Notes: generated by a model from the sequence alone, not told the origin. 64,000 nucleotides of DNA from Yuukianura sp. NJ FZ-2021 (GCA_046563655.1 CM102283.1:2604001-2668000), one strand, 5' to 3'. Shown: positions 1,474 to 45,300, counted from the stretch's first letter. Translations and numbers: made by a program.

Positions 1474-3773
1474 TCAACTCTGAGGCCAGAGACGCCCCAG
1501 TCCAAGTTTTCCGGTATACGCAACATGTGATGGAATGCGCGGGTGTTGTGGAATTGGCGGTTGATTTGAAAAAATTCGAAATTTCGTGTCTGGAGCCGCT
1601 GACATGTCAAGGTCACTCTGATTTGAATTTCCCTCCGAAGGACTTTTGATCTGCAGTGGAGACGGAATTTGGAGGTAGCGAAACCTTGGAGGGATTTCAA
1701 TTTCCCGAGGAGCTTTTAGTGAAACCGAATCCGCTTGGTTCGCTATTCGAACCGGTATAAACCTCAACCTCCCTTTTTCTAGAGGCGCCTCTGTCGTAGT
1801 TGGTGATTTCAGCATTTGAATGTCATTTGAATCCAAACTTCTTGCAGAATCGGATGTATCTTCAGTGGGGTTTGCCGGTTCGAATCCGATCGGAATCACA
1901 ATGTGATCAACTACTGGAAACCGAAATGGTGGTGGGGCAAGTGGGCCGGAGTGTTTAAGTGGGGCAGCGGGTGGGACCGGAGTTGTCGTACCGAGTATTG
2001 ATGGTGGGCTGCCTGTAGAAGGTTGTAAGTCTGCGTTGTTCTCCACTTGCGACCCTTGACCTGCGTCAGGTTGGACTTGCAGCGACTGATCTGCGTTATT
2101 TTGTAGTTGTGCTCCTACAGGAATGAATTGAACCGGAATTATCATTGGCGCTTGTGTCGGTTCACTTTGAACCAATGGCTGAGCAGTTGCAGTTAATATT
2201 GATGCTTCTGGTGGCGGTGATCCTGGAGTAGGATTTGAATCTTGTGCGGTTTGTTCTGTTATGGTCGGTTCAAATTGAACCGGAATTATTACCGGAGTGT
2301 TGTCCGGCACAGCGTTGTCCTGTATTTGAGCTGTAGTTGTCGTTGGCACAGAAATTTCTGGTGGCGGACTGCCAGGAGACATATCTGCGTTTAAGTCGTG
2401 CTGTATTACCGGTACAAACTGAACCGGTATAATTACCGGAGCTTCTGTGCTCGGTTCGACTACTGTTGTGGAAGGCATAACTACTGTAGTAGATCCCGGT
2501 GAAGCACCGGGAACCGCAGCGTCATCAGATGGAGTCAAAGCTGGGACAAACTGAACCGGTATAATTACCGGTTTTGGTGTCGGAGTTGGTACCGCCGTGG
2601 TCGGTTCAGGAGCTACCTCTGTCGGAGTTGCTTCAGTTGATGAGTAAAACGGCCACCAAGATGGCGGCCATTTAAAATAGTCGGCAATTCCTGACCTGCG
2701 ATTTTTCGAAGGTTGAGACGGATAATGCACAACTCTGTCAATAGATGGCGCGTAAATTTGTGCCGCTGGTATTTCTTCAGCTGAAACTGAAACCGGTTCA
2801 GCCGTCGTCGTTTCAAATCCAGTCGGCATCACTGGAACACTTTCAATTCTGGTTATTTTCGGCAAACTTTGTTCAGTCGAAGGCAGTAAAATATCTGTAA
2901 CATGTTTGCGTTTTGTCGGTACTTTTTCGGGAACCGGCTCGTCGTTAACTGGTGATTTCGGTTCTGAAACTTCAGATTTTGAAAATCTCTCCAATAACGG
3001 TTGAGACGAAATTTTAAATGGATAGGTTTTAGTTTCAGCATTTTCATCAGAGGTCACGGAGGTCACGCCTGCGTGATTTGGCGAAATAATAACTTCATGT
3101 GCTTTTGTGGCATCGTAGCTGACGTCACGTTGTGCTTTTGCTTTTTTCTAAATTTGAGGTGTTTTAAAAAAGTTAGTATTTAAAAGTATTGTTCAAGTTT
3201 TTTAAAAACTGAATTGCATTATAAACTTTTTCTTTTTTTTACTTTTTTTGTCTAAATTTTATAAAAAATTTTAATGTGACTTACAAGTAAATCAAGTCTG
3301 TTCTGCACGATCGCTCGTCGTTTGACATCGTTTCGTATTCTGAGCCTCGCAGTTTGCAGGTCAACTTTTCGTCGGTTGGGTTGACCTCGCGACTTCACAT
3401 AACCAGCAGGAACCAGCACTATTGCTTCTTCCGGTACTTTTATATGAAAAATGTAATATAAATAATACAATTTAAGTTAATGCAATTAGTACAACATATT
3501 TTTTGGCTCTTTCATCTCACCTGAGTTCATTTTATCCAAAAGAGACTTCAATTCATGATTCATGCGTCTCCTGTCAATTGTTAATTGGGTGCCACTTTCT
3601 CCTGGATTAACTCCCATATCAATTCCATTGTTCTTTGAAGTTTCACTTTTGACCTGCACAGGTTGACCTGTTGACCTGAGGTCATTCGCTTTTCCTGCCA
3701 CTGTCTCTCCTCCTACACACGCAATAGCAACAAAAACACAAGAAATTATAACGGTTTTCAATTTCTCGGCCAT
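1474..3773 (-). CDS. Secreted Pro/Thr/Ser-rich repeat protein (~692 aa), function unknown
   Basis: Exons 3773-3521, 3436-3285, 3147-1474 join in frame at GT/AG sites. Hydrophobic N-terminus (TVIISCVFVAIACVGG) and repeated P[VM]IIPVQF.P motif. Confidence 0.75.
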
Positions 3774-4616
3774 GAGAACAAAATTTTTATTTAATTTTTA
3801 AAAAGTTAAAATTGAAGAGCTAAAAATGCAATGCAAAAAGCCAAAACGTTGTCAAATTTTTTTTTCAAAAATTTTGTGGTGATTTACAAACAAGGTGAAA
3901 ATTGGTACTAAACGAAACGGGACAACGAGGGCCCTTGAAGTGTTCTCGAAGGGACCCTTAGGATGACCTTGGCCTTTTAGCCCTACTGAACTCCGTTACT
4001 CAAGGAAAAAATTTCTATTGTCAGAACATTTTCGAAATGAGGGGACAAGGTCAAGCAATTTTGACGAGGTCATTGGCTAAATATTTCAAAATTTCAAAAA
4101 GAAAAAAAAGTTGTGATTTTTTTGTGACGACGGCAGAAAAGAGTTGCAATTAATCATAAAAACTTCAATCATTTTTTGACCTTCTATTGCTAGAAAATGT
4201 TTGGTCATGGTTGATTAATTCATACACTTGCATAATTACATAAGTTACATAAGTTACAAAACTTAAATAACTTGCATAAGGTCATACTTAATAACTTTCA
4301 ACAGCTTATGATTAACTTAATTGTCAAGCATTAACTTTTTCCTATCATTTGTGGTTATGGTTATGGCCTCGAAATTAGTTCATAAAAAATTTAATTGGAT
4401 TTAAAGCACGCAAAATCGAATGAACTTTTTGTGTCGCGTGGTCGTGTGGAGTCAAACCATTAAAAACGCCCATCACTTTAAATCTCTTTCCACTTTCAGT
4501 TTTGTGTCTGTCCTAACCAGCACAAATTCAAAATTTGAAATTCGCTTCAAAAAAAAATTTAGGTCCATATTTTGTACTTTTGGTGTGCACAGAGTTTTGG
4601 TTTTGAATTTTGAAAA

Positions 4617-7600
4617 ATGGCAACAGAGGGAAAAACATACGGCCCAACGGAAATCGCCGGCAGTGCTCTGGATTTGATTGGCCACACGCCACTTTTGGCC
4701 TTGGACAGAATTTGGCCAGGGCCTGGCCGAATCCTGGCCAAATGTGAGTTTATGAATCCCGGAGGAAGCATCAAGGACAGGTCGTCACTCGGTATGATCC
4801 AACAAGCTTTGAAGTCTGGAGCTCTTGCCCCGGGGGGACCGATACTGGAGGTCACCAGTGGAAATCAGGGGTGTGGGTTGGCTATGGTGGCGGCAGTGCT
4901 TGGCCATCCAATGACCGCCGTCATGTCCAAAGGCAACAGTCCACAGAGAGCTACCATGGTCAGTTTGTTGAACTTTGACTTTTTGACTTTTCCGGTCTTT
5001 TTGGAGTTTTTGACTTTTTGACGCTTTTGAAGTTCTTACATTTTTGACGTTTCCTACCCTCTCTTGACTTTTTTCTTGTTTTTGACCTTTTCCTGACTTT
5101 TTTACGGTTTTGGCTTTTCATGTTTTTTTTGGACTTGCTTGGCATTTTTTAACAGAAAATACAAGGTAAAAAAAATTGTCAAATTTCGAGATCAAAGTAA
5201 TTGTGTAAAAATTAAAAAAAAAATGATACGGTCTGTGCCTCCAATCGCTTGGGTCGAATCGTGGGATTCGAACCCAAGGACTCTGCAATGTACAAGTTTC
5301 GCCATACGAGATAGAGAGGTTTGTTTTCAAGTGAGCTAACAGACCATTTCGTACTAGTCCTACAAAATTTGCAAAGTCTAGTTTTGGCAAATCGCAGCGA
5401 AAACGAATTTGTGCAACAATTTCTCTCACCCTCCACTACTACTCCACACAAGAGAAAAGCAGATGTAAAAGTATGACTCCATAAAAGATGACGTCGGTTG
5501 CTTACAAACTGCATCAAAAGAATTTAAAAAAAAATTAAAGAAGCCAAATTAAAAACGAAATGAAAATTAGTCATATCAGTAAAATCCAACAAAAGTAAAA
5601 TTTTACGAAAAATCGGATCGTGCATGGCGTTCCTCGTATTTGAACTCGCGACTGACGTCTAACGATTTTTCTTAAGGGGGGATGGGAGCCAGCGTTTGTT
5701 TACGATTTGGTGTCAGCCATTGCCATTAGTAACAAAGCAAAATCACTATGAGGAGGTAGGCTCCTCACGGGCCGCCACAAAGGGCACCCGGAATGAGAGG
5801 TCAAGGAACGGGTCACGAGAGTGACCCGGAACAATAAATCAGACGTGGAATGGGCAGATAAGGGGGAAAACTAATGTTTATTTAAATAAATAATGAAAGA
5901 ACGAAAGAACCAATATGTTGTGGGTATGTCCGGTGCTTGGTGGGTCTTGTCCAGTGGCGGTTGGGGTCACGGCGTGGTCCACTGACCAAAAAGAAGTATG
6001 GCTGCCGGTGGAGTGACGAGAGACGAGGACTGGACTGCTTTGCGGTTGGAAGTCGACTGCCAGGAGGAAGTGGGGATTGGGCTTCTGCCTGTGAACAGGC
6101 AGAAGTTCTAGAATCTTCTAGAAGGTGGTTTGGGGGAATCGGCTATGGGGGAAAACACACGGCGGAGTGGGGAAAACACCTTGTCATGTTCCTTTGCAGG
6201 AACATGGCAAGGGCTAGTGGGGGAAAATACTGGACTTGGGGAGGAGTCTTGGTTTCATTGGAAACCAAGACTAAAATAATGACGATAGGTGACACCGGAG
6301 GTCAGCACTCTCACAGGTCCCCAACGACCGCTAGCCGACCCGGCGACATGAACCGCGGGTGACCGACGGGTGGAGCCTGGAAATTGGGATTGGGGAGGGA
6401 ACGGAGCTACAAAACTCCGCTAACGCGATACTGGAGGGAAGCTACGTAATGTCAACGGACAACGTTTGGCGTTCTTTGTAGATTTCCGGCGGCGATTAAA
6501 CGAAGATGTGAGTGCACGGAAATAGCCAGTATGCTTCTTGCGTTTTCGGGGATGTCCAGTATCACGGGGTGGAACGGGGGCAGAACCATGATGGCTAGGG
6601 AGAGGGATACTTCCCGTGTGCTGTGGGGGACTGGGGGAACGAGAGTCACTCGCTGCGGGGGAGGAGTCATCAACCGAGCTGAAGTACTGGTCAGAGTCGT
6701 CGGAACAAATGTCTTCATCAGAATCCCATGACAAGTTGTAGTCGCCAAACTGCTCTCGAGGGGGACAAGGGAGACATTCCATTGACATGAGGGACTTCCA
6801 AGTGTCGTATGGCGGGGAGAATCCGGAAATTGGTTAAGGATGAGGAGACGTCGACGAACCGAGTCTTCTGTTTCTGCGTCTCTCGTGAAGTAGGGAATGA
6901 GTGGTATGTCGAGCCAGGAGACAATGTTTGCTGCGTATTCCGCTTCCGTGAGATTGGGGTGATCCGCTTCGGCCATCAAACGTGCATGTGTGATGAAGGG
7001 GTTAGGGTCATCGCCAAGGGACCATTCGGGAAATCCAGAAAAGTCGATGTTGAGGGGGACTGGTTTAGAGATGGGACTGGGAGCTGCGACTGAAGTTTTG
7101 GGAGGGGAAGCGACAAGTTCAAGGCGGGAAACGTTAACCCATTCATAAAATGAAGGGTTACCAGGCAGGTTGACAATGGCAACACTGTCGCTGGTGAGAA
7201 CGCTGTCGACGACATAGGGACCTTGCCAAGGGGAAGAGCCGTTGCCACTCTTTCCATTGCTGGGAAGGTGACAAATGACTTGGGAAGCTGGAGGGAACTT
7301 GTCGGAGGGGCATTTTCTTGAACGTTGGGAACGGGGCTTCTGGGGCTTCTTCTTTGTTGTTTTGGGCTTGGAAGCTGCAGAATCGCAACTGGAGGGAACG
7401 GTAGGGGGATCTGGAATGGTCACTGGCGGACTCTCGGCCGGAACAACACTAGAAGGTGCTACAGGGACGGGGGAACACTCTTGCTCAAGGACAAGTCCAC
7501 CTAAAGTATGAGCAGGGGCAATTGGGACAAACGATTCAGAACTGGTGGGATCAACAGCTTCGGGACTGGAGAAAACAAGAGCGACAGAAGAACCAGAGGG

Positions 7601-10600
7601 ACAACAAACGACAGACAGATCGCTAGTGCTGGAGGATCTGGAAACGATTTTAACTCCGCTAAGGGAAATACGGGAGGAATCGGAAATACTGGTAAGATCG
7701 GATACGCTTGAGACTGGGGAAATACGTGGGGACTCGGAAACACTGTAATTCTCGGAAATTCGGGGAGATGCGGAGAGAGCCGGCGTTACGGAAAGACTTG
7801 GAGATTCGGAGGGGGGAAATACGGAGATACTTCGAGTTTCGGAAAGACTGGCAGTTTCGGAGATACACGGAGATGCGGAAAGACTGGAAACTTCGGATTT
7901 ACTCTTTGGATCGGCGAAACCTGTGGGATCGGCTGTGCTCATGGGTTCGGGCGGAACGGAGAATCGGGAAAGAGCAATTGGACTTGGTACTGGGTCTCTA
8001 TTTGTTATGGCTAGAGGAGTGGGACTGGTTGGGGCATGAGAGGGGGAACCCTTAACGCTATTTCTAGCTTCGGGGCTACTAGGGGCAATGGATCCACTCT
8101 GATCTGGAAGTACATTCAGGGCATTAGGGTCACTCACGTCGATTGGATCAACCGCAACATTTGACTTCAACACAACATCAGAATCGGAAACAGCTTCTGC
8201 AGCTGCTCGTCTGCGAGGGACTGCGACTGGGAGGGACTGGTTTACGGAAACTTCATTTCTACGCAACAGGGAGAGTCTCGGCTTTGGTTGAGGTATCGTT
8301 TCCCCAACGACCAATTTTGAAGTACGAGCATCATCTGAATGGGAGCAGGGGCTTGGACATATCCGGTTATTTTGGGCAAAGAGCTCAAAGAACTTGAGTA
8401 ACTCTTGTGTGGGAGGGGGACATTGACTGGGCTTACGAGTAGCAACTCGCTTTCTCCGTCGTTTTGGGACAGGGGTGGGAATGTACCTTAAGACAAAATC
8501 GGATGGGGGTGGGGCAGGATTTGCAACTGGGGCAGGAGGCTGTTGCACCTGCATCAACAGCCGGTGGAGTTTTCCGCTTGCAGCATAACTGCATCGGCCA
8601 TTGTTGTTAGGACTTCCTTGATTTGCTGGAGGGAGGACATAATCATGGGACCCCAATGGGTATCCATGGTGTTCGGGACACTCTGGGTAAATGTCGGGGG
8701 TGGGGGAGCTACAGGGGAAACTCCAAGGGAACCGGCTGCTTGGGTCATGATGGGAGGGACGGAACTTCGTTGGGGTTGGGACCTGGTGTAAACCATGGGG
8801 AACTGGCGGGGACGAGGGGGAAGAGGTCGACATCCCGCAGCTATGGGGTCAATGCCTTGGGAACGCCAATATGCGTGGCAATACTTGCGGATGTGACCAC
8901 CACGGCCACAATAATGACAGATAGGGCGACCATCTTCTGTTCGGTGGTCCGAAGGAGAAGGCTGATAAGCCAAGGGCATACGGCGCTGCGGGGTGGAAGT
9001 AACTCCAGAGGCTTCTGAACCGTGGATGGAGCTGGTTGGACTGGAGTGATATGACATTCTGGACAATGATCTGAAACTAGACAAATAATTAGTAGGAACC
9101 AATATTTTTAGTTAGGGTGTTATAAAGCTATGAGTTATAAACTCAAATTCCACTAAAACACCAAAACTAGGGTATACGAGCCAAGCCACAGAGCCACACA
9201 AACCACAAGAATTAATCAAGGGCTAGGGATAACCAACCGCATAACACACCGATTTTTGGAATTGTGGGGTAGGTAGGGCATTCAGATTCAAAAATCTGAA
9301 AAATCCGACGAATTCTGACGATTAGGTAGGGTATTGCGTCGTGGGGATATGCGAAATCGCTGTTGGGGAATTATCCGACGAGTCTGGGGAAAAGTCGCAC
9401 CTGGTTGCGTCAAACTCGCAAGTGGTTGCGATCGGGGCAGACTGTGTAGTTGGATGTTGCAGTTGGGGGGATAACCAGTGGGACTTGGGAGAAAAACCGC
9501 TAAGTGTTTTAATTCTGGGGAAAATCGGGCAGCGTTTTGGTGCGAAGTGAGGGAATTCCAAATTGGGTTATGTTTCAATAGGGGGGGGCGAAGGGGCGGA
9601 TAAACAAATTGAAAAAAATTTGCTAAGTTGTGGGAAATTTGAAAAATTTGGGCAGCGTTTCGTTACTGAGTAAGGGAAATTCGAATTGGGTTATGCTTCA
9701 ATGGGGGGGGATACTAACTTTTGAAAAATCGGTTAAGGGTTTGGAATTTTTGAAAATTTTGGACAGGGTTTTGTTTAGGGATTCGAAATTTCAATTTAAG
9801 GTAAGGTTCAGGGAAGGGAAGGTCACTTGGAGGAGAGTCAATGACTTTATGTGGTAGTGGGACTACTTTTGGACTTTGGTGGGGCTGGTGGGGACGAAAA
9901 ATCGCTATGTTTTTAACTTTTGAAAAAATTTTGCGCGGGGAGGTTTAGGGAAAGCGATTTAGCGCAAAAAACGGGGTCACTTTTAAGGGACTGGGGGGAT
10001 AAACGCCGGGGGGTGGGGCGCTACAACGCAATAAACAACAACCTGACCTTTGATTTGACCTTGGTGGCTCTTCGGTGGCTCAGTAGTCGCTCGGAGGGCG
10101 GTTGTTCAGAAGAAAGTCGGTGGCTCAGAAGAGATACGGTGGCTCAGGAGAAAAATCGGTGGCTCTCGCTTCTTTGGCTCAATTGGGAGCTGAAAAAAAT
10201 CGATACAAAATTTAACAAAAATGAACAAAAAATGATCTAGAAAAGGAATTAATGTTAGGTAGGGATGTGGGAGTGAGGCTAAATGGGGTCAAATTGGGGT
10301 CAAAGGTCAAATATAGCCCGTCTGAGGCCCCACATATGAGGAGGTAGGCTCCTCACGGGCCGCCACAAAGGGCACCCGGAATGAGAGGTCAAGGAACGGG
10401 TCACGAGAGTGACCCGGAACAATAAATCAGACGTGGAATGGGCAGATAAGGGGGAAAACTAATGTTTATTTAAATAAATAATAAAAGAACGAAAGAACCA
10501 ATATGTTGTGGGTATGTCCGGTGCTTGGTGGGTCTTGTCCAGTGCTTGGTGGGTCTTGTCCAGTGGCGGTTGGGGTCACGGCGTGGTCCACTGACCAAAA

Positions 10601-12852
10601 AGAAGTATGGCTGCCGGTGGAGTGACGAGAGACGAGGACTGGACTGCTTTGAGGTTGGAAGTCGACTGCCAGGAGGAAGTGGGGATTGGGCTTCTGCCTG
10701 TGAACAGGCAGAAGTTCTAGAATCTTCTAGAAGGTGGTTTGGAGGAATCGGCTATGGGGGAAAACACACGGCGGAGTGGGAAAAACGCCTTGTCATGTTC
10801 CTTCGCAGGAACATGGCAAGGGCTAGTGGGGGAAAATACTGGACTTGGGGAGGAGTCTTGGTTTCATTGGAAACCAAGACTAAAATAATGACGATAGGTG
10901 ACACCGGAGGTCAGCACTCTCACATCACTGCTCAAACTTGCAAAAGTCGGCACTGTTTCCAATGGTTGACTAATCAAAGTTTTTCGCAGTATAGCAATTC
11001 AAACAAACTGGGACTCAACAATCAACTTGTATCCATGGAGACGGCTGATTTCAGTGCCGACATTTGCGAGTTGCTAAATAATGTCAGAATTACATCTACT
11101 TTTTCTTATAAGTGTCTTATTATAAAACCTAAAAATGCGTTTAAGGTGTCTAAAAATCCGGAAGACCATGGCGGACAATGATCAGGGACCAATTTCCCAA
11201 ATTTTGGTGTCATACAATACTTAGACAAAATTGGACTTTGTATCGTATTTTTAGCATCGTTTAGCAGCAAAATATCAAATTCTGACCCCTGATAATTCTT
11301 CCTCGTGTTTCAACGAATTTTTAGAGGTATTGTACAAATTTCTACGTCATTCCTGTGAGGACTTATAAGGCCTGGAAGTTAACCAATTTGAGCTGAAACG
11401 AGACCCCCCGTTGCTAAGGGATATGGGTCCTTAAGTCGAACGCGCTAACAGACCAATTCAAATAGAACTTCAACAAACTACTTTGATTTTACAACATTAC
11501 AACACTTACAACCAAGGTTTCTATAGCAACGAAACAGTTATCTTTAACAGGTTAGGCAATAAGTTCCGTTTTCTAAAAATGTCACTGCAAACATTTTTCT
11601 ACTCTGAACTTGTTTCTTTATTTGAGATAAAAATTTGCATCCAACTTATGCAAATAAAAATAAATTTATAAAAAATAAATAAAAAATAAATTTTTGTGGG
11701 GAAAACCAGCCCCCTGCAAATGGCGCCCATAGCAACCAACGCAATTTTTGTTTGTGACGTCACCCGCTGAAAAAATACCGTAATCGTCAAATTGCAACCC
11801 GCTGGCATTTATGTAAACAAGATGTGTCTTACGGGTTTCTATAGGACACCACCAATAATTGGCAGAATTTCGGTATTTTCAGCGGGTGACGTCATTTTTT
11901 TTCCACATGGCAACCAAACAAACTTTCCATTCGCACTACCTAGTAGTATTCTATTTACCTTAAGGGAAAACAATAAAAATATTGCCCGACATATTGCCTA
12001 ACCTGTGAAAGAAAAATCTATTTTCTTGTTTACGAACCTTGCTTCCAACTCTTTTTGACGTTGTGCGTCTTCCATGATCTTCGATCATCACTTTTTTTCA
12101 CGTTATTGGTCCGTAGATGCGAGCACTTGGAGCCAACGCTGTTCTGGTGGACCAAGTAGAGGGCAAACCAGGGAACGTGACATTTGCTGATGTTTCGGCA
12201 GCGGAACAACGTGGCCTTGACCTCGTCGCTTCAACTGGAGCCTACTATGTGGACCAATTCAACAATCAAAACAACATTTACTCACATGAAGTCACTACTG
12301 GACCGGAAATCTGGGCTCAAACGGGCGGTCACATTGATGCGTTCCTGGCCACGGTGGGAACGGCCGGAACGTTCATGGGCGTTTCCCGTTTCCTCAAATC
12401 CAAAAATCCAGAGATTTTGTGCTGCGCAGTGGAACCGAAAGGAGCTGAAGTGATCAGCGGTTGCGAAGTGGTGAAACCTTTGCATCTATTGCAGGGCAGC
12501 GGTTACGGAGAAGTACCGCGACTTTTCAAATTTGACACCGTGGACCACACCCTCGCAGTGACAGATCGTGAAGCAGTCGAGTATAAAAAGCTACTTGGAT
12601 CCAAGGAAGGACTCTACTTGGGATACACGAGTGGAGCCAATGTCGTAAGTTTCAAAATTTTTTGAAAAATTCTTAAGTTTTTGACTTATTTTTCAAAATC
12701 CTGAAATCCTTGAAAAACTTTTTTAGGCGGCTGCTGTGAAACTTTTGAAATCAGGAAAACTTCCGGCCGATGCCTGGGTCGTAACGGTTTTGAACGACAC
12801 TGGACTCAAATACCCGGAAATTGAAAATTACGAATTTCATGATGTGGAATAA
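4617..12852 (+). CDS. Cysteine synthase / beta-cyanoalanine synthase-like (CAS1), 331 aa, intact
   Basis: Exons 4617-4958, 12117-12644, 12727-12852 (phase-0 GT/AG introns). Fold-type II PLP motifs IGHTPL, KCEFMNPGGSIKDR (PLP Lys), EVTSGNQG, DQFNN, TTGPEIW, GTAGT, LQGSG, DTGLKY. Closely resembles the Tetranychus urticae CAS as I recall it. Confidence 0.92.
5258..5345 (-). mobile_element. tRNA-derived SINE-like head
   Basis: Minus strand has A-box-like TAGCTCACTTGA and B-box GGTTCGAATCC; no complete cloverleaf. Confidence 0.45.
5747..6315 (-). repeat. 3' LTR (569 bp)
   Basis: Near-identical to 10335-10924. Confidence 0.95.
6452..8833 (-). CDS. LTR-element ORF2 (793 aa): Ser/Pro-rich, with an integrase C-terminal GPY/F-like motif and no catalytic Pol domains
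   Basis: Uninterrupted ORF. PWQGPYVVDSVLTSDSVAIVNL...WVNVSRLE resembles the GPY/F module. No YxDD, D[ST]G protease, HHCC or DDE context seen. Basic NLS-like PKRRRKR. Confidence 0.75.
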   Translation of the reverse strand: MSTSSPSSPPVPHGLHQVPTPTKFRPSHHDPSSRFPWSFPCSSPTPDIYPECPEHHGYPLGSHDYVLPPANQGSPNNNGRCSYAASGKLHRLLMQVQQPPAPVANPAPPPSDFVLRYIPTPVPKRRRKRVATRKPSQCPPPTQELLKFFELFAQNNRICPSPCSHSDDARTSKLVVGETIPQPKPRLSLLRRNEVSVNQSLPVAVPRRRAAAEAVSDSDVVLKSNVAVDPIDVSDPNALNVLPDQSGSIAPSSPEARNSVKGSPSHAPTSPTPLAITNRDPVPSPIALSRFSVPPEPMSTADPTGFADPKSKSEVSSLSASPCISETASLSETRSISVFPPSESPSLSVTPALSASPRISENYSVSESPRISPVSSVSDLTSISDSSRISLSGVKIVSRSSSTSDLSVVCCPSGSSVALVFSSPEAVDPTSSESFVPIAPAHTLGGLVLEQECSPVPVAPSSVVPAESPPVTIPDPPTVPSSCDSAASKPKTTKKKPQKPRSQRSRKCPSDKFPPASQVICHLPSNGKSGNGSSPWQGPYVVDSVLTSDSVAIVNLPGNPSFYEWVNVSRLELVASPPKTSVAAPSPISKPVPLNIDFSGFPEWSLGDDPNPFITHARLMAEADHPNLTEAEYAANIVSWLDIPLIPYFTRDAETEDSVRRRLLILNQFPDSPRHTTLGSPSCQWNVSLVPLESSLATTTCHGILMKTFVPTTLTSTSARLMTPPPQRVTLVPPVPHSTREVSLSLAIMVLPPFHPVILDIPENARSILAISVHSHLRLIAAGNLQRTPNVVR
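7680..7900 (-). repeat. Degenerate 18-bp (6-aa) coding tandem repeat in ORF2
   Basis: ISETAS/LSETRS/ISVFPP/../LSVTPA/LSASPR/ISENYS/VSESPR/ISPVSS/VSDLTS/ISDSSR; CGGA recurs about every 18 nt on the + strand. Confidence 0.75.
8538..8575 (-). promoter_or_regulatory. Putative -1 programmed ribosomal frameshift signal
   Basis: G_GAA_AAC in the ORF1 frame (8575-8569), 6-nt spacer, perfect 8-bp stem GGCUGUUG/CAACAGCC overlapping the ORF1 stop. ORF2 is in the -1 frame. Confidence 0.7.
8554..9057 (-). CDS. gag: Mini-Gag ORF1 with CCHC zinc knuckle (167 aa from ATG 9057)
   Basis: RTEDGRPICHYCGRGGHIRKYC fits CX2CX4HX4C. No recognisable capsid domain upstream. Confidence 0.8.
   Translation of the reverse strand: MSYHSSPTSSIHGSEASGVTSTPQRRMPLAYQPSPSDHRTEDGRPICHYCGRGGHIRKYCHAYWRSQGIDPIAAGCRPLPPRPRQFPMVYTRSQPQRSSVPPIMTQAAGSLGVSPVAPPPPTFTQSVPNTMDTHWGPMIMSSLQQIKEVLTTMADAVMLQAENSTGC
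10317..10332 (-). promoter_or_regulatory. Degenerate primer-binding site (tRNA-Pro-like)
   Basis: TGGGGCCTCAGACGGG starts 2 nt after the 5' LTR; the canonical tRNA-Pro PBS is TGGGGGCTCGTCCGGG (12/16 match). Confidence 0.55.
10335..10924 (-). repeat. 5' LTR (590 bp)
   Basis: Near-identical to 5747-6315, with an extra tandem copy of GTGCTTGGTGGGTCTTGTCCA. Confidence 0.95.
11512..12041. mobile_element. MITE family M1 copy
   Basis: Terminal CCAAGGTT...AACCTTG plus subterminal AACAGGTTAGGCAATA / TATTGCCTAACCTGT inverted repeats, shared with other copies in the window. Confidence 0.7.
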
Positions 12853-22185: not shown

Positions 22186-23467
22186 GAACATTCAAATGCT
22201 TTTTTTAAATGTGGCTTCTACAACTTATTAAGTGCTTACTCCTTTTTAAAAACAACTACAATCCAAGCGAGCTGTTAGCCTGAGTCAAACTTGTGCTATT
22301 TATTGTCGTACCGTATTTTTATGAAGGTGTTTCAGAAAAATGAAATTGTAGAAAATTATATGTTCGATACATGTTCAATTTTTAATACACAGAAAAAAAT
22401 ACATGTACAATTGTGGTTTATAATATAACAAAAGTGTTAGGTTAGATTTGTCCCAAAGAATTTGTATCCGTTTTGGTCAAATTTTAGTATTTTGACTTTG
22501 AATTGCATCCGGTGGAAGTACCCAATTATTTTCTAAAAATATAAAATTCTGCCAACAAAATACTTGGTTTGAAACTGATCCAACTTTGTGATAAATCATG
22601 TAAGTAATAATTTTGATATTTTTTCTTGAAATATATTTGAGCTTTTAGAAGAATGTACTCAGGAAATTGTAAATTAAGCTTAAATTGGCAATCAAAATTT
22701 TAAATATAAACTAATTTTAAACACTTTTTGCCATATTCGCGCAATTTAGAGTTGTATAACCATTATTCCAAAATTTACCGGTGCTAACCTTTGAAATACG
22801 CACATAAGCATAAAATGTTCAAACTGTACCATAGTAGTGTATGCTTATGGTAACTCCCTTTTCGTACAACAGTTCAATCCTTTTAGTGCCGTTTTGTGAA
22901 TATTTGCGGATTTTTTTTTGTACTAAATATTTATTGCCCTTAATGCTAAAGTAAATATTTGCTCAGTTTTTAAAACCATATTTTTCGTCATATTTCGGGG
23001 TACTTCGGACATATTTTTGACAACGCTGGTGATAGGCCAACAATTAGGTTTTATGTGCTGTATTAATATGTGTCCATCGTAACTTTAAACAGCAAGTAAA
23101 ATTAAACTTTCCATAATCTAATTTTTCCATGGGCTGTTTGTGGTTGATGTGGTGTGTGCCGCTTTTACACTTATATTATGCTCAGGCTTTGATTTAAGTT
23201 TTTAAATTTTCCAGCCTCGTTCTGCGGTTTTTTTTTGAAAAGCATTCCACTATCCAAAATTTCCCGCGTCCCATTAGCAACTTATTATGATACAATTTAT
23301 TTGTCTAGACTAGTTTAAATCAACTGGGCTTTTCCATCCGATCATTCATTTCAACTTTTGTTTTGAAAAGGAACACTCTAACCAAGATTTCCAAAATCCA
23401 AAGTTTTTAAATTCGACAAATTTTGTAAAAACTTTGCATTTTTTGCAAAACTTTTCAAAGTTTCAGA

Positions 23468-24984
23468 ATGCCTTCAGGTGACGGTTCAGGAAAAAGCTAC
23501 GGCCCGACTAAAATTGCAGCCAGTGCTCTTGACCTCGTAGGAAACACACCGCTTGTAGCCCTCGACCGAATTTGGCCCGGTCCTGGTCGAATTTTGGGAA
23601 AATGTGAGTTTTTGAATCCCTGTGGAAGTGTGAAGGACAGATCTTCACTGGGCATGATCCAGAGGGCAATGACCTCCGGAGAGGTCAAACCTGGACAGCC
23701 GATTCTGGTGGCAACCAGTGGCAACCAAGGGTCCGGACTTGCCATGGCTGCAGCAGTTCTTGGAAATCCTTTGACCGCTTGCATGTCAAAGGGCAACAGT
23801 CCCCAGAGAGCCACAATGGTAAGCAATGTGAGCAGTGATGCTGGACATCCACTTTTTGACGTTTCGTCCAGTGGATAATATATTTCATCCGGAAGAAATG
23901 GCTGGATAAAATGGATAATAATATAGAATACTTCCACCTAATTTGATGTAGGTGGAAGAAATATTATATCCATCCAGCTACATTGAATGTGAGGTTTAAG
24001 GGGATTCACATATGTCTTAAGACAAAGAATGACAGCGCAGAAAAAATAAACAACCGAATGGGGCTCGAACGCACAACTTACTCCGAAGAATCTATCTACC
24101 ACTTGAGCTATCAGGTGTAGGACTGTGGTACAATATTGCCAAACGCTAAAGCAATGCTTTAAAATCTTTTGAAAAATCTTATAGCATAAAAATTTTAAGT
24201 TCTAAAAATTTTGATTATGGAAAACTTTCAAACATCCTAAAAAAACAAATCGCTGAAATTTTAGATGAGAGCTCTTGGTGCCAAAGTTGAGTTGGTGGAT
24301 CAAGTTGAAGGAAAACCTGGAAGCGTGACTGCTGCCGACGTCGAAGCTGCGCAGAAGCATGCGCAGGAACTCGTGGCTTCCACTGGTGGCTTCTACTTGG
24401 ACCAATTCAACCATGTCAACAACATTCACTCACATGAAGTCACTACTGGACCAGAAATCTGGACTCAAACGGGCGGTCACGTTGATGCGTTCCTGGCCAC
24501 GGTGGGAACGGCGGGAACGTTCATGGGCGTTTCCCGTTTCCTCAAATCCAAAAATCCTGATGTGATGTGCTGCGTAGTTGAACCGAAAGGGGCCGAAGTG
24601 ATTGCTGGATGCGCAGTCGTGAAACCGTTGCATCTATTGCAGGGCAGCGGCTACGGAAGAATACCGGGACTTTTCAAATTTGACATTCTGGACCACACTC
24701 TTGCTGTAACGGACCGTGAAATTGTTGAATACAAAAACCTACTTGGAACTAAAGAAGGACTTTACGTTGGATACACAAGTGCAGCCAATGTCGTAAGTTT
24801 CAAAATTTAAAAAGAATTGAAATTTTGATTTTTCAGTGTGTTCTAAATTAACTTGTAGGCTGCCGCTGTCAAAGTTTTGAAATCTGGGCAACTTGGTGAA
24901 GACGCTTGGGTGGTGACGATGCTGAACGATACTGGACTCAAATATTCAGAACTGGAAAACTATGAATTTCAGGACATTGAATGA
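23468..24984 (+). CDS. Cysteine synthase / beta-cyanoalanine synthase-like (CAS2), 334 aa, intact
   Basis: Exons 23468-23818, 24265-24792, 24859-24984. Same intron positions as CAS1; NPCGSVKDR, TSGNQG, GTAGT motifs. Confidence 0.92.
23833..23985. mobile_element. hAT-type MITE (family H1) in CAS2 intron 1
   Basis: CAGTGATGCTGGA...TCCAGCTACATTG with exact 8-bp TSD AATGTGAG. Duplicated copy at 29149-29309. Confidence 0.8.
24053..24117 (-). mobile_element. tRNA-like / SINE head in CAS2 intron 1 (paralogous copy at 29373-29441)
   Basis: A-box TAGCTCAAGTGG and B-box GTTCGAGCC on the minus strand; anticodon arm does not pair. Confidence 0.55.
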
Positions 24985-28844: not shown

Positions 28845-30308
28845 CTTGACCTCGTAGGGAACACACCGCTTGTAGCCCTTGACCGAATTTGGCCCGGTCT
28901 GGGTCGCATTTTGGGAAAATGTGAGTTTATGAATCCCTGTGGAAGTGTGAAGGACAGATCTTCACTGGGCATGATCCAGAGGGCAACGACCTCCGGAGAG
29001 GTCAAGCCTAGACAGCAGATTCTGGTTGCCACAAGTGGCAACCAAGGGTCCGGACTTGCCATGGCGGCAGCAGTTCTTGGAAATCCTTGACCGCTTGCAT
29101 GTCAAAGGGCAACAGTCCGCAGAGAGCCACAATGGTAAGCAATGTGAGCAGTGATGCTGGATAGCCACTTTTTTGACGTTTCGTCCAGTGGTCATATATT
29201 TCATCCGGTTTTATCCGGAAGAAATGGCTGAATAAAATGGATAGCAATGGATCCTTCCACCAAATTTGATGTAGGTGGAAGAAATATTATAATTCATCCA
29301 ACTACACTGTATGTGAAGTTCAAGGGGATTCACATGCCTTGAGACAAAGAGTGACAGTGTAGAAAAAATAAACCACCGAATGGGTCTCGAACCCACATCT
29401 CTTTACTCCGAAGATGCTGTCTACCGCTTGAGCTAGCAGGTGTAGGACTGAACTACACTATTGCCAAACGCTAAAGCAATGTTCTAAAATCTTTTGAAAA
29501 TCTTATAGCATGAAAATTTTAAGTTCTAAAAATTTTGATTCTACGAAACTTTCAAACATCTTGACAAAACAAATCGCTGAAATTTTAGATGAGAGCTCTT
29601 GGTGCCAAAGTTGAGTTGGTGGATCAAGTTGAAGGAAAACCTGGAAGCGTGACTGCTGCCGACGTTGAAGCTGCACAGAAGCATGCGCAGGAACTTGTGG
29701 CTTCCACTGGTGGCTTCTACTTGGACCAATTCAATCATGTCAACAACATTCACTCACATGAGGTCACTACTGGACCAGAAATCTGGACTCAAACGGGCGG
29801 TCACGTTGATGCGTTCCTGGCCACGGTGGGAACGGCCGGAACGTTCATGGGCGTTTCCCGTTTCCTCAAATCCAAAAATCCTGATGTGATGTGCTGCGTA
29901 GTTGAACCGAAAGGGGCCGAAGTGATTGCTGGTTGCGCAGTCGTGAAACCTTTGCATTTATTGCAGGGCAGCGGCTACGGAAGAATCCCGGGACTTTTCA
30001 AATTTGACATTCTGGACCACACTCTGGCTGTAACAGACCGTGAAATAGTTGAATACAAAAACTTACTTGGAACTAAGGAAGGACTTTACGTCGGATACAC
30101 AAGTGCAGCCAATGTCGTAAGTTTCAAAATTTAAAAAGAATTGAAATTTTGATTTTTCAGTGTGTTCGAAATTAACTTGTAGGCTGCTGCTGTCAAACTT
30201 TTGAAATCTGGAAAACTTGGTGCTGATGCTTGGGTGGTGACGATGCTGAACGATACTGGACTCAAATATTCAGAACTGGAAAACTATGAATTTGAGGACA
30301 TCGAATGA
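28788..30308 (+). pseudogene. CAS3: 5'-truncated duplicate with a chimeric N-terminus and a 1-nt deletion at 29087
   Basis: CAS homology starts at 28844; exons to 29134, 29589-30116, 30183-30308. CCTTGA vs CCTTTGA in CAS2 gives a stop at 29088-29090. Confidence 0.8.
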
Positions 30309-42383: not shown

Positions 42384-45300
42384 ATGGGTCAGTTTGACCC
42401 GAAAGACATGGACGGAAACCACCAACCTCCGAACTTAACTGGACACAGTGTCATTGGTTCTCCTACGGCAGACACAATCGCAACTGGACCTGGAACGACT
42501 CCAGTCAAATACGGAGAACTCATTGTCCTTGGGTAAGGTTGTGTTTTTCAATTAGTAATTGATAAATCAATGTGGTAAAAGTGTCTTTGTGTAGAATTGT
42601 AATTAGAAAAGCCATAAAGCCGCATCCGTCCCACCGGATTTACACACCTTGAGCCCATCCAAGTCAAAATGAAAGTCACCATTAACCAAAAACTTTCGTT
42701 TTTATCATTTGCTGCACTGGCACAATGTTGCACTGGTTACTTAATACATTCACTGGCACTACCGAATTACTAATTGGCAAAATTAGTAACAAATTTTATA
42801 AGTTAGGTTTACTTTAGGTTAGTGCACTTGCCTAACGTAAGCCTAACTTACTTTTACTTGATCGTTTGTTGCAATTGTGAATTTGTTGCGTAAATACTGC
42901 CGTGATTGAATTTCATTTCGTCACACAGAAGTGTGAAGTCTTTCGGAAGCGGCAATCACAATCGCAGTTTCGCAGTTTCAAAACTTTCAAAATGTCGCAA
43001 CACCAATACCCAAAACCTTGGGAAATACCGGGATTTTCATAAGTCTTCTACTAATGAGGAATTAGAAAACTTTTTAAATACGCTACTAGTAAAATCTTAT
43101 GCGAAAAAGCATGTCACATGATAGGGAGATGTGCCTGCGCAGCTTAGCTGACTAAAAAAGGACGATGACGATTAGCATTTGACGATGACAAAAGACAAAG
43201 ATCCGTTTCAAGAATTCTGAAGAAGATCCGTTTCAATTTAGGCTCTTTTAGTCCTTTTACTGATGCGTACAATATTTTTTAGTAAAAAAAAGTGATAGTA
43301 ATCTACTTACGGCCCAGTTACATTTGTTTTCATCATCATTTTTGATCATTTTGAGTATACTAAAAAGTATAAAAAGTTAAACTTTTGTGCCGTTTTGTAC
43401 AGCTTTCTGCTTCTCCAAATATGAAAGTTTGGAGATGATAAAAAGTTTTTGCTAATTTCTTTTTCTTGCCGTTGCGCTCTACGGCCCTTTATGAACATTT
43501 TGGAATAATTGCATCCTAAAAAGCGCCAAAAGGCATGACACGATGCGACAATTTATCTGTGCATTAACGTTATTATTTCCTTTTAAAATGTCGTCTTCTC
43601 CCAACATTATGATAAAAGCACAAAGCCATTACTACCGCAGTTTTTTACTTTTTCGCAAAAGTTTTTTTCAATGCCGGCGGCAAAACTGTGAGTCAATTCC
43701 TGAATTCGGAGTTCATTTTTAGCGTGTTTTTGTCACTTTTTGACGTTTTTTCTTCGTTTGGCGTTTTTGTCTCTTTTTTTTTTTTGGCGTTTTTCTCCTT
43801 TTGGTGTTTTTTTTTCTCGAGACGACCTTGGCTGATTTTTTTTTTGCATAGTCTCGAAAACTGTGCCAAAAATTTGTTCCGAGGTTAGGTTTTACGGAAA
43901 TTGCAAATGGTGGGAACAAAGTGGGCGTGACTCGGTGAAAAAACGGGATTTTTCCATTAAGGTTAGTCCTCAATGGATTGAACATTGAACTTGAACTTGT
44001 TTGAAAGTTGAAAAAAAAGTGAAGAAATGAAGTTTTGTTTTGTTTTTTTTTGAGTGAGGATGAAAAAGAAAAAAAAAGTTTTTACAAAAAGTTAGTATTC
44101 CGTTACTACTAAAATTGTTCATGTGAAACGACGAGAACAATTGGATGGTTCAACGGTTCATGTCATGTGTCTGTACAGTTCCCCAGAGGGGAATAGAGAC
44201 TAGGTTAGGTTAGCCTAATCTGGTTAGGCTAACGTAACCTAACGAAGACGAAGAAATTGAAATTTGAAACTTATAAAGGGCTTTGTTTTGAGGGAGTATT
44301 GGGTTTTGTATCATTTGGTTGCAATTTTTCTGAAGCTTGCATTTTTTTTGTTGGTTTTAGTTTATTTATGTAAGTGGAACGGGGATAATTTCATTGTCAT
44401 TTGGCACGAGTAGTGCGGAGGAAGTGTAATAAGTAATAAGGTTAGGTTTTGCAACTTGTTAAGGTTATGTTGTTAGGTTGAAGCTTAAAGTTAGGTTTGA
44501 GCGTATGTTCCCTCAAGGTTCCTTGACAACGAAAAATTAATTTTCTGTAACAGGTTGGGTACTGCCACGCATGTGACAAAAAATGAAAAAAACGAAAATT
44601 GTTACCAATTTTGGTCGAAGCCAAAAAAAATTGTTACCAATTCGAATGTAAAATTTAAAACATTCGGCTGTATTGTTATAACTACGATGCCATGAAATGA
44701 AAGACACTCTTTTGTTTGAAAAATCGAAAAAACATGAGGTATTACTCGACCTGTTACAGAAAATCAACGTCAACAAACCTTGGGTTCCCTGTTGTAATTG
44801 GTTTTGTCATGCTCCAACAACTTTATCATGGTTACTTGTGTCTTATGTTTTATGAGTTTTTATTATGTTTGTAGGTATAATGGATTTTTGCCACAAGGTG
44901 ACAAAGGTCGACGAAGGTCAAAGTTCGTTTTGTCCAGACGAGAGAAACCAAATGGAATAAGAAGATACAAACACTACGTTGTGGACACTCCACACACTTC
45001 CAAAGCAGTACTGGACACAACGGTTCACTCCATTTCATATACGCTTTCCAGGAATCAGGCTGTTATTGTGGAGTATGTAGCAGATGAAGAGACTGACATG
45101 TTCCAGGTAAACTCAAAATGCAGTTTCGCAATTTGTTATTTTGAATTTGAATTGTAAAACGTTAGGGTAGGTTTTGTGAAGTGGTAATTTTTGTTTGTTT
45201 TTGTTGTTGACAGATTGGGCGGTCTTCAGAAGTGCCGATAGACTTTGTGGTGATGGACACTGTGGCGGGTGATAAGTCAGGCGGAGTGGACAAGTCAATG

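Follow-up and report, generated by a model that had tools for sequence, protein, structure and literature searches.

An LTR retrotransposon of Yuukianura sp. without detectable enzyme domains, with two overlapping reading frames and a candidate -1 frameshift signal

We have analyzed 64,000 nt of DNA from Yuukianura sp. NJ FZ-2021 (GCA_046563655.1 CM102283.1:2604001-2668000), a stretch which we call the window. It contains an LTR element, all parts of which lie on the minus strand. Its features are the following:

10924-5747, minus strand: the whole LTR element
10925..10928, minus strand: upstream copy of the target-site duplication, GTGA (AGTGA if the LTR end is set one base earlier)
10335..10924, minus strand: 5' LTR, starting with TGTGAG at 10924 and ending with CTCATA at 10335
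10316..10334, minus strand: candidate PBS, the 19-mer TGTGGGGCCTCAGACGGGC, with a TGG which begins 2 nt past the 5' LTR
9058..10315, minus strand: leader, about 1.26 kb long, in which no ORF is convincing
8554..9057, minus strand: ORF1, 167 amino acids, with a single CCHC knuckle and otherwise proline-rich
6452..8848, minus strand: ORF2 frame, 798 codons from stop to stop, -1 relative to ORF1
8569..8575, minus strand: candidate -1 slip site G_GAA_AAC, non-canonical
8538..8562, minus strand: hairpin with a perfect 8-bp stem and a 9-nt loop, 6 nt past the heptamer
8514..8518, minus strand: second CCUGC, 19 nt past the stem, the only sterically plausible partner of the hairpin loop
7762..7897, minus strand: serine-rich tandem repeats, in frame in ORF2, with periods of 18 and 51 nt
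7094..7321, minus strand: integrase C-terminal SH3-like or GPY/F-like segment (weak leads), ORF2 residues 505-580
6420..6833, minus strand: additional open frame of 137 codons, -1 relative to ORF2, over the ORF2 tail
5747..6315, minus strand: 3' LTR, adjoined downstream by the other copy of the duplication, GTGA (5746-5743)

The LTR starts with TG and ends with CATA, and an alignment of its two copies shows 6 mismatches over 572 aligned bases and 22 further bases in gaps (594 nt in all). The 5' LTR contains an AATAAA and a 21-bp tandem repeat (10508-10574), which has one unit more than in the 3' LTR. A target-site duplication of 4-5 bp, either GTGA or AGTGA, is found on either side of the element. 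Empty sites are present in other copies of the flanking repeat, where contigs join 5741-5747 to 10924-10939. The original prediction described a young LTR element, and these data bear it out: the duplication, the near-identical LTRs and the empty-site joints support a bounded, recently inserted LTR retrotransposon. No tRNA genes were found within the window. Upstream of the 3' LTR there is a weak purine stretch (..TTGGGGACC), with only a short GGGGA. In the leader, the internal repeats 9710-9643 and 9588-9521 are 81% identical, and a 19-bp tandem repeat occupies 10106-10165.

The knuckle of ORF1, C47-X2-C50-X4-H55-X4-C60, corresponds to residues 47-60 (8919-8878), and the final codons are GCG GAA AAC TCC ACC GGC TGT TGA. 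Pfam only gives zf-CCHC_4 for this protein (E 0.45), and none of the protein searches we have made found relatives of it. No capsid-like domain was detected in ORF1 upstream of the knuckle, and Pfam gave no gag family in ORF1 or in the leader. The zinc knuckle of the proposed mini-Gag is therefore present, but its identity as Gag is not upheld: since ORF1 has no capsid-like part, mini-Gag is only a label.

ORF2 overlaps ORF1 by 98 codons. Its frame is open from 8848 to 6454, and the fact that it stays open through the overlap is unremarkable (P = 0.08). The other two frames over ORF2 have 23 and 32 stops in 706 codons. Past the slip site ORF2 contains 705 residues (16% S, 14% P), and a fusion with the 163 residues which precede them would have a predicted length of 868 amino acids. 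We have recomputed the -1 frame, its extension and the length of the fusion, and all of them coincide with the earlier values. ORF2 is mostly low-complexity, and stops are rare on the element strand because it is C-rich. The additional frame which covers the tail of ORF2 stops 32 nt beyond the ORF2 stop. In this tail, copies of the element differ by net 1 nt somewhere in 6518-7002 (net +1 in record 26 of run X4).

Pfam searches of ORF2 (E up to 1, and up to 10 for its C-terminal parts), of the other minus-strand frames and of the leader gave no protease, RT, RNase H or integrase core in any frame, in agreement with the enzyme-less element originally described. No relatives of ORF2 were found among 1.84 billion representative proteins, and no homologue, from the host or from elsewhere, among 5.8 billion clusters at near lengths. 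Residues 505-580 are the only part of ORF2 with a retroelement-like signal. The motif W-Q-G-P-Y-V-V ... L-P ... V-N-V-S-R-L can be recognized there by eye, by reference to what we take to be the GPY/F consensus. The nearest clusters of language-model features (Atlas) are MLVIN_C (PF18697; score 0.91, 170 shared features), SH3_Tf2-1 (PF24626) and Integrase_p58_C (PF22938). The predicted structure of these residues is all-beta, with low confidence (pLDDT 48), and the first row given by Foldseek is the Ty3 intasome chain 7q5b_A (E-value 0.88), amid SH3, Tudor and KOW folds. On the other hand, Pfam HMMs did not match residues 505-580 at E up to 10, no PDB sequence matched the segment, and phmmer found no integrase. 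The GPY/F-like segment of the original prediction is thus accompanied by weak feature and fold leads, but not by HMM or sequence matches.

An ORF of this composition might have a chimeric origin, with its S/P-rich body captured from the host or from some other sequence and inserted between what is left of gag and the 3' part of pol. ORF2 would in that case represent neither a remnant of pol nor a protein built for a purpose. The confinement of the retroelement-like signal to a single segment and the in-frame tandem repeats are consistent with such a capture, and PMC5408684 describes LTR elements with captured extra ORFs in bdelloid rotifers. We consider this origin very improbable: neither set of proteins or clusters searched above gave a homologue which could represent the source.

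The candidate slip site G_GAA_AAC is found 4 sense codons ahead of the ORF1 stop. A 6-nt spacer, TCCACC (8568-8563), separates it from the hairpin, whose arms, GGCUGUUG (8562-8555) and CAACAGCC (8545-8538), pair with about -12 kcal/mol. The ORF1 stop UGA (8556-8554) lies inside the 5' arm. The position of the heptamer, the spacer and the perfect stem are all as had been claimed. The 98-codon overlap lacks any canonical X_XXY_YYZ heptamer, and of its in-frame heptamers GGAAAAC alone has an AAA or UUU run in the A site. It is non-canonical because full re-pairing only takes place at the A-site codon; in the P site, the change from GAA to GGA leaves a mid-codon mismatch, so the heptamer does not correspond to X_XXY_YYZ.

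Besides this hairpin, the 2606-nt coding part contains no perfect stem of at least 8 bp (loop 3-12). A fraction of 0.002 of the positions in the coding part has such a stem 5-9 nt downstream; the fraction is 0.006 for the window and 0.0004 for shuffles. A non-random placement of the hairpin is supported by these values, with criteria for hairpin and heptamer which were chosen after the site had been seen. For the 86-nt region the folding energy does not stand out from that of shuffles (z = -0.27), and the MFE structure employs a competing pairing. When only the downstream sequence is folded, the predicted stem and its competitor are nearly isoenergetic (-16.2 vs -15.8), and the hairpin is the MFE structure of 8562-8480 folded alone. 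A pseudoknot had also been suggested. The loop GCAGG (8552-8548) could pair with CCUGC at two places downstream, 8536-8532 and 8518-8514, but only the second one is feasible. The first is placed 1 nt past the stem, and a pseudoknot with it would leave a single nucleotide to span the 8-bp stem, which is sterically implausible in pseudoknot structures. The use of G_GAA_AAC for -1 frameshifting is plausible.

The element belongs to a multi-copy, diverged family: contigs from 4 runs and 2 organisms have 80-100% identity to it. Our comparison rests on the 32 pieces listed; 1273 more exist. Among those listed, the three pieces which cross the shift site (records 5, 21 and 29) have no gaps in any case, and record 21 has 19 differences in 398 nt (8489-8886). 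Seven gapped pieces among those listed lie wholly inside ORF2 (7160-8151), and all their net length differences are multiples of three: -3, -21, +9, -3, -18, +9 and +9. Only 2/8 of the gapped non-coding pieces listed show this feature (Fisher p = 0.006, or p = 0.03 if only 4 ORF2 length events are independent, as overlapping pieces may share one event). Such differences are found partly within repeats whose units are also multiples of 3. The 20 best-supported ORF2 substitutions listed include 8 synonymous and 10 third-position changes. None of them gives a stop; an accumulation of stops, which had been named as evidence against the original prediction, does not appear in this set. The excess of synonymous changes does not reach significance (p = 0.09 for third positions).

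These copies are relevant to a different reading of the locus, in which the layout is a fossil. The element would be a decaying internal-deletion derivative, its frames and hairpin a leftover or a coincidence, and ORF2 no longer translated or selected. Copies would spread only through a helper which recognizes the LTRs, PBS/PPT and packaging signal. Two proteins without relatives in our searches, a mostly low-complexity ORF2 on a strand where stops are rare, the poor fold of the 86-nt region, the non-significant synonymous excess and an ORF2 tail in different frames among copies all agree with decay. It does not account so well for a frame of 798 codons which stays open where the other two are full of stops, for length differences in multiples of three in all the ORF2 pieces listed, for the absence of new stops among the listed substitutions or for the position of the hairpin. 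We regard this reading as rather unlikely.

A contig variant which joins 8824 to 8575, skipping 248 nt, is found in two of the four runs, X1 and X4. Its depth (362 in X1 and 6 in X4) is comparable to that of the unjoined contigs (250 and 4.2). Position 8824 is the last of an ORF1 codon, and position 8575 is the first of an ORF2 codon. Unless other sequence intervenes, the joint may fuse ORF1 codon 78 in frame with ORF2. Frameshifting would be unneeded in such copies, because ORF1 and ORF2 would share one frame. Copies with both ORFs in one frame had been indicated as evidence against the original prediction, and this variant is one of them if the joint is clean.

ORF2 might accordingly be made without any frameshifting, either from a productive 8824/8575 fusion or from its own AUG at 8833 in a processed mRNA. 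The copy in the window would then need no recoding signal, and the hairpin would be incidental. Similar depths, the fit of the phase at the joint and the ATG in the ORF2 frame at 8833 argue for this route. Against it, the contig data define only the two sides of the joint, the shorter of which has just 36 nt. The skipped segment is not a canonical intron, because its ends are CT..GC on the element strand. The ATG at 8833 lies 3' of the ORF1 ATG and of internal ATGs, and the coincidence of heptamer and hairpin would be left unexplained. A route of this kind appears to us improbable.

As a whole, the observation from which we started is confirmed and its interpretation is partly supported. On balance we lean towards a non-autonomous, recently active family of the Ty3/gypsy-retrovirus type, which would have lost its enzymes, would reach ORF2 by -1 frameshifting and would be mobilized in trans. 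The arrangement of gag and pol in two ORFs would still be that of an autonomous ancestor, but protease, RT, RNase H and integrase core would be gone. ORF1 would be a short zinc-knuckle, nucleocapsid-like protein. In the pol position, ORF2 would combine S/P-rich sequence with a putative SH3/GPY-F-like domain from the integrase C-terminus, and its own C-terminal part would be specific to the family. It would most likely be reached by a -1 slip at G_GAA_AAC, where the A-site tRNA-Asn would move from AAC to AAA, stimulated by the 8-bp hairpin 6 nt downstream, with a possible pseudoknot extension to the second CCUGC. The predicted product is a minor 868-aa ORF1-ORF2 fusion alongside abundant ORF1. 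Reverse transcription and integration of the copies would depend on enzymes provided in trans.

A more ambitious proposal is that the family is under selection and that regulated -1 frameshifting yields a little of a non-catalytic fusion of knuckle and integrase C-terminal domain. This protein would act as an adaptor into the particles or intasome of a helper, biasing packaging or integration, and the 8824/8575 joint would be a sister route by in-frame deletion. If so, the fusion would favor the RNA or cDNA of the parasite itself. We put this forward tentatively and consider it unlikely.

The closest comparison is with Ty3/gypsy elements (Metaviridae) with a -1 gag-pol. Common features are LTRs which start with TG, a 4-5 bp target-site duplication, a PBS-like TGG and an ORF with a CCHC knuckle, followed by an overlapping -1 ORF with a similar arrangement of heptamer, spacer and stem. 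Another common feature may be a segment near the 3' end which resembles the GPY-F/SH3-like C-terminus of integrase (weak leads in our case). Integrase C-terminal SH3-like domains are its nearest feature clusters and agree with the all-beta model, without an HMM or PDB sequence match. In contrast with Ty3/gypsy, our element has no protease, RT, RNase H or integrase core, its ORF1 has no capsid-like part, and about 420 S/P-rich residues occupy the region expected for the enzymes.

Non-autonomous LTR retrotransposons such as TR-GAG, LARD, TRIM and BARE-2 are known in plants. We know of no non-autonomous LTR family in which a -1 recoding cassette gives access to an ORF which only keeps an integrase C-terminal domain. 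In Athila non-autonomous elements, intact ORFs are kept under purifying selection, according to PMC2410132. With Athila and other non-autonomous LTR elements which contain ORFs, our element shares the lack of pol functions, a multi-copy state and a presumed requirement for mobilization in trans; unlike it, Athila, TR-GAG, LARD, TRIM and BARE-2 are plant families.

The heptamer also has a parallel in fusagraviruses. In PMC4881467, GGAAAAC is put forward, without experimental verification, as the -1 PRF site of FpV2, FpV3, MpRV2, PgV2 and PMeV, and the BcRV1 signal is the only one tested. The heptamer, its placement just 5' of the ORF1 stop and a proposed downstream structure coincide in both cases (same paper). 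Those viruses have dsRNA genomes and infect fungi or, in one case, a plant; their sequences are unrelated to our element. In summary, the element is an unusual variant of a known parasitic LTR element, not a new kind of system.

The element is a bounded LTR insertion of about 5.18 kb on the minus strand (10924-5747); coordinates run downward along the element strand. Its repeats and the nearest host exons are the following:

10924-10335 and 6315-5747, minus strand: LTR direct repeats, from the repeat alignment
4614-5021 and 12117-12665: PALP (cysteine-synthase-like) exons flanking the element, from Pfam

The LTR alignment covers 572/594 nt and contains 6 mismatches plus 22 gap bases, most of the gap being one additional unit of a 21-bp tandem repeat. 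They start with TGTGAG and end with CTCATA, and GTGA (or AGTGA) is duplicated at both outer edges. Contigs from four public DNA runs (two organisms) were compared with the window. Some of them link 5741-5747 directly to 10924-10939, so that the flanking sequence must also occur without the element. The insertion is fairly recent, and the few LTR mismatches, the target site duplication and the empty-site joins bear out the earlier description of the element as young.

The element is placed in an intron of the first PALP copy of a tandemly duplicated gene array, made up of PALP exons, repeated multi-pass membrane-protein genes and arrestin-domain genes. PALP exons recur three times in the window (4614-5021, 12117-12665, 23429-24810 and 29589-30134), and PALP and arrestin domains are the only ones found by Pfam in the surrounding genes, too little to bear out the nematode host which the gene content had suggested. 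In all four runs the flanks (5597-5793 and 10916-11300) have contig depths about 10-100 times that of the element, and many contigs connect both flanks directly; the element therefore sits within a very high-copy repeat. A 557-codon open frame at 1474-3147 (minus strand) codes for a P/T/V-rich protein with repeated units similar to PVIIPVQFVP and no Pfam match. A strong GC skew of +0.24 to +0.31, similar to that of the element, extends across 44000-52000 of the window, where the plus-strand ORFs resemble host-gene exons. Neither repeats nor retroelement-like ORFs are found in the 44-54 kb stretch, which rules out a pol-bearing relative hidden there.

The coding part of the element contains two overlapping frames:

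9057-8554, minus strand: ORF1, 167 aa
8848 to 6454, minus strand: -1 frame (ORF2), open for 798 codons

All items of the original prediction (ORFs, heptamer, spacer and stem) were recovered at their predicted positions. ORF1 ends with ...GCG GAA AAC TCC ACC GGC TGT TGA, and a slip at G_GAA_AAC is predicted to give a product of 163 + 705 = 868 residues. Over 706 codons of the ORF2 region, the other two frames present 23 and 32 stops. Codon and positional composition give no clear position for the frame switch. ORF1 has a single C-X2-C-X4-H-X4-C knuckle (residues 47-60), and its only Pfam result is a sub-threshold zinc-knuckle match. The knuckle of the proposed mini-Gag is thus present. A capsid-like part is absent, so that the term mini-Gag serves as a name only. 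From the slip site to the segment similar to the integrase C-terminal (GPY/F) module, about 420 residues are rich in S and P, with in-frame 18- and 51-nt repeats.

Pfam does not detect any match in ORF2, in its sub-segments (the C-terminal ones at E up to 10), in the other minus-strand frames or in the 1.26-kb leader; this copy of the element is therefore enzyme-less, as had been proposed. The leader itself (9058-10315, minus strand) is C-rich, lacks an ORF and, at about 1.26 kb, is of unusual length; it contains two 68-nt units 122 nt apart (81% identity) as well as 19-bp and 10-bp tandem repeats. No relative of ORF2 was found among 1.84 billion representatives in an exhaustive search at all lengths, or in a word-indexed search at near lengths, and protein searches at near or longer lengths gave none for ORF1. 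ORF2 and the 28-nt cassette pattern have no match in metagenome or prokaryote-genome contigs. Rfam gave no match and ARAGORN no tRNA. The element might also be a chimera with captured sequence: LTR elements which capture additional ORFs have been described, as in bdelloid rotifers (PMC5408684).

The heptamer (8575-8569) does not follow the X_XXY_YYZ pattern, it is slippery in its A-site half (A_AAC) only, and by itself it is weak evidence. No other in-frame heptamer of the 98-codon overlap has an A-site run of AAA/UUU. Six nucleotides past it lies the hairpin GGCUGUUG-(9 nt)-CAACAGCC (8562-8538), with a perfect 8-bp stem of about -12 kcal/mol. The coding part (2606 nt) holds no other perfect stem of at least 8 bp (loop 3-12). 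Positions with such a stem 5-9 nt downstream make up a fraction of 0.002 in the coding part, of about 0.006 in the window (either strand) and of 0.0004 in shuffles, figures which are indicative only, since the stem criteria were fixed after the site was seen. Folding of the 86-nt stretch counts against the cassette: It is no better than that of dinucleotide shuffles (z = -0.27), and its minimum free energy structure is a rival pairing, GCAGGUGCAAC with GUUGC..CCUGC. Folding of downstream sequence only also counts against it, as the predicted stem is best over 8562-8480 (-16.2) but the competitor over 8562-8500 (-15.8).

An H-type pseudoknot had also been suggested, probably with the nearer CCUGC, which begins 1 nt past the stem. 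In pseudoknots of this type, an 8-bp helix cannot be spanned by a 1-nt loop, which rules out this partner and is a third point against the cassette. The other CCUGC, at 8518-8514 and 19 nt downstream, would be sterically able to pair in its place.

The GPY/F-like segment, W-Q-G-P-Y-V-V ... L-P ... V-N-V-S-R-L, occupies ORF2 residues 536-571 and fits the integrase C-terminal module. Sequence searches (Pfam, including E up to 10, and PDB) give it no confirmation, the PDB rows being at chance level, and an Atlas search with residues 520-700 found no match. In language-model features, the clusters nearest to residues 505-580 carry MLVIN_C (0.91, 170 shared features), SH3_Tf2-1 and Integrase_p58_C. 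AlphaFold without an alignment gave two low-confidence models (pLDDT 38 and 48). The second is all-beta, and its first Foldseek row is the integrase chain of the Ty3 intasome (E 0.88), beside SH3, Tudor and KOW folds; no row has E <= 0.001. The feature clusters and the first Foldseek row agree, weakly, with the proposed assignment, and an integrase C-terminal origin of the segment appears likely.

The same contigs give information about other copies. They align to the element at 80-100% identity, and several distinct contigs often share one interval, which shows a multi-copy family whose members have diverged. For example, records 3 and 4 of run X1 have 0 and 25 differences over 7922-8124. The counts below refer to 32 listed contig pieces, beside 1273 further ones. 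Among those listed, all three which cross the shift site are gap-free (record 5 of X1, record 29 of X4 and record 21 of X3, the last with 19 differences over 8489-8886), thus the -1 layout is not a private indel of the copy in the window.

Were ORF2 neutral, the element would be an ordinary deletion derivative. Against such a neutral fossil, the length change is a multiple of three in 7/7 of the gapped listed pieces wholly within ORF2 (7160-8151), which suggests frame preservation, and in 2/8 of the non-coding ones (Fisher p = 0.006, or 0.03 if there are just four independent events), a result weakened because part of the region consists of repeats with multiple-of-three units. The 20 best-supported ORF2 substitutions listed include 8 synonymous and 10 third-position changes (p = 0.09) but no new stop. 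These comparisons suggest that the ORF2 frame is preserved, perhaps with mild purifying selection.

The end of ORF2 is overlapped by an additional open frame of 137 codons (6833-6420, minus strand; P = 0.002 under codon shuffling). Two frames are simultaneously open across the last 126 or so ORF2 codons, and their ends are no more than 32 nt apart. One contig from organism B has a net 1-nt length difference inside 6518-7002; the last 100 or so ORF2 residues are therefore in different frames among copies.

ORF2 might also be made through an in-frame variant or a separate mRNA. One contig each in X1 (depth 362) and X4 (depth 6) links 8824 to 8575, leaving out 248 nt; unjoined contigs at the same place have comparable depths, 250 and 4.2. 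Position 8824 closes an ORF1 codon, and the heptamer's first G, at 8575, opens a codon in the ORF2 frame, a phase which would fuse ORF1 to ORF2. If the junction is clean, these copies would have the knuckle and ORF2 in a single frame, an arrangement which the original prediction had itself named as refuting it, but the shorter side of the joint comprises just 36 nt. The variant occurs in two organisms, with one end exactly at the first base of the heptamer. A canonical intron is ruled out as its cause, as the skipped segment ends in CT..GC on the element strand, and so is an alignment artefact from internal similarity, the flanking 36-mers being unlike by eye.

The best account is that the element is a non-autonomous derivative of the Ty3/gypsy type. 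It would have inherited the ancestral gag/pol -1 layout, probably with its recoding signal, and then lost the enzymatic core of pol. ORF2 would have been retained as a frame-preserved, largely disordered protein, ending in an integrase C-terminal-like domain and a family-specific part, and copying would have to depend on a helper. Present-day frameshifting, like any role of the fusion protein, is something we infer.

Non-autonomous LTR elements are usually viewed as passive RNA templates, and several classes are known in plants (TR-GAG, LARD, TRIM, BARE-2). This family would retain both a signal for recoding and, in the pol position, a non-enzymatic protein whose frame is preserved. If true, it would be a tractable hyperparasite encoding its own adaptor. 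In a limited literature search, no pol-less element was found described in which a -1 cassette precedes an ORF with just the integrase C-terminal domain left. In a preprint on nematode exWAGO, non-autonomous LTRs appear as small-RNA sources only. Non-autonomous LTR elements which retain selected ORFs are already known: Athila is an example (PMC2410132). The slip site has its own counterpart in several fusagraviruses, where an identical GGAAAAC directly before the ORF1 stop is proposed as a putative -1 site (PMC4881467). If true, the element would provide a eukaryotic cellular case of this non-canonical site, hitherto proposed for dsRNA viruses only.
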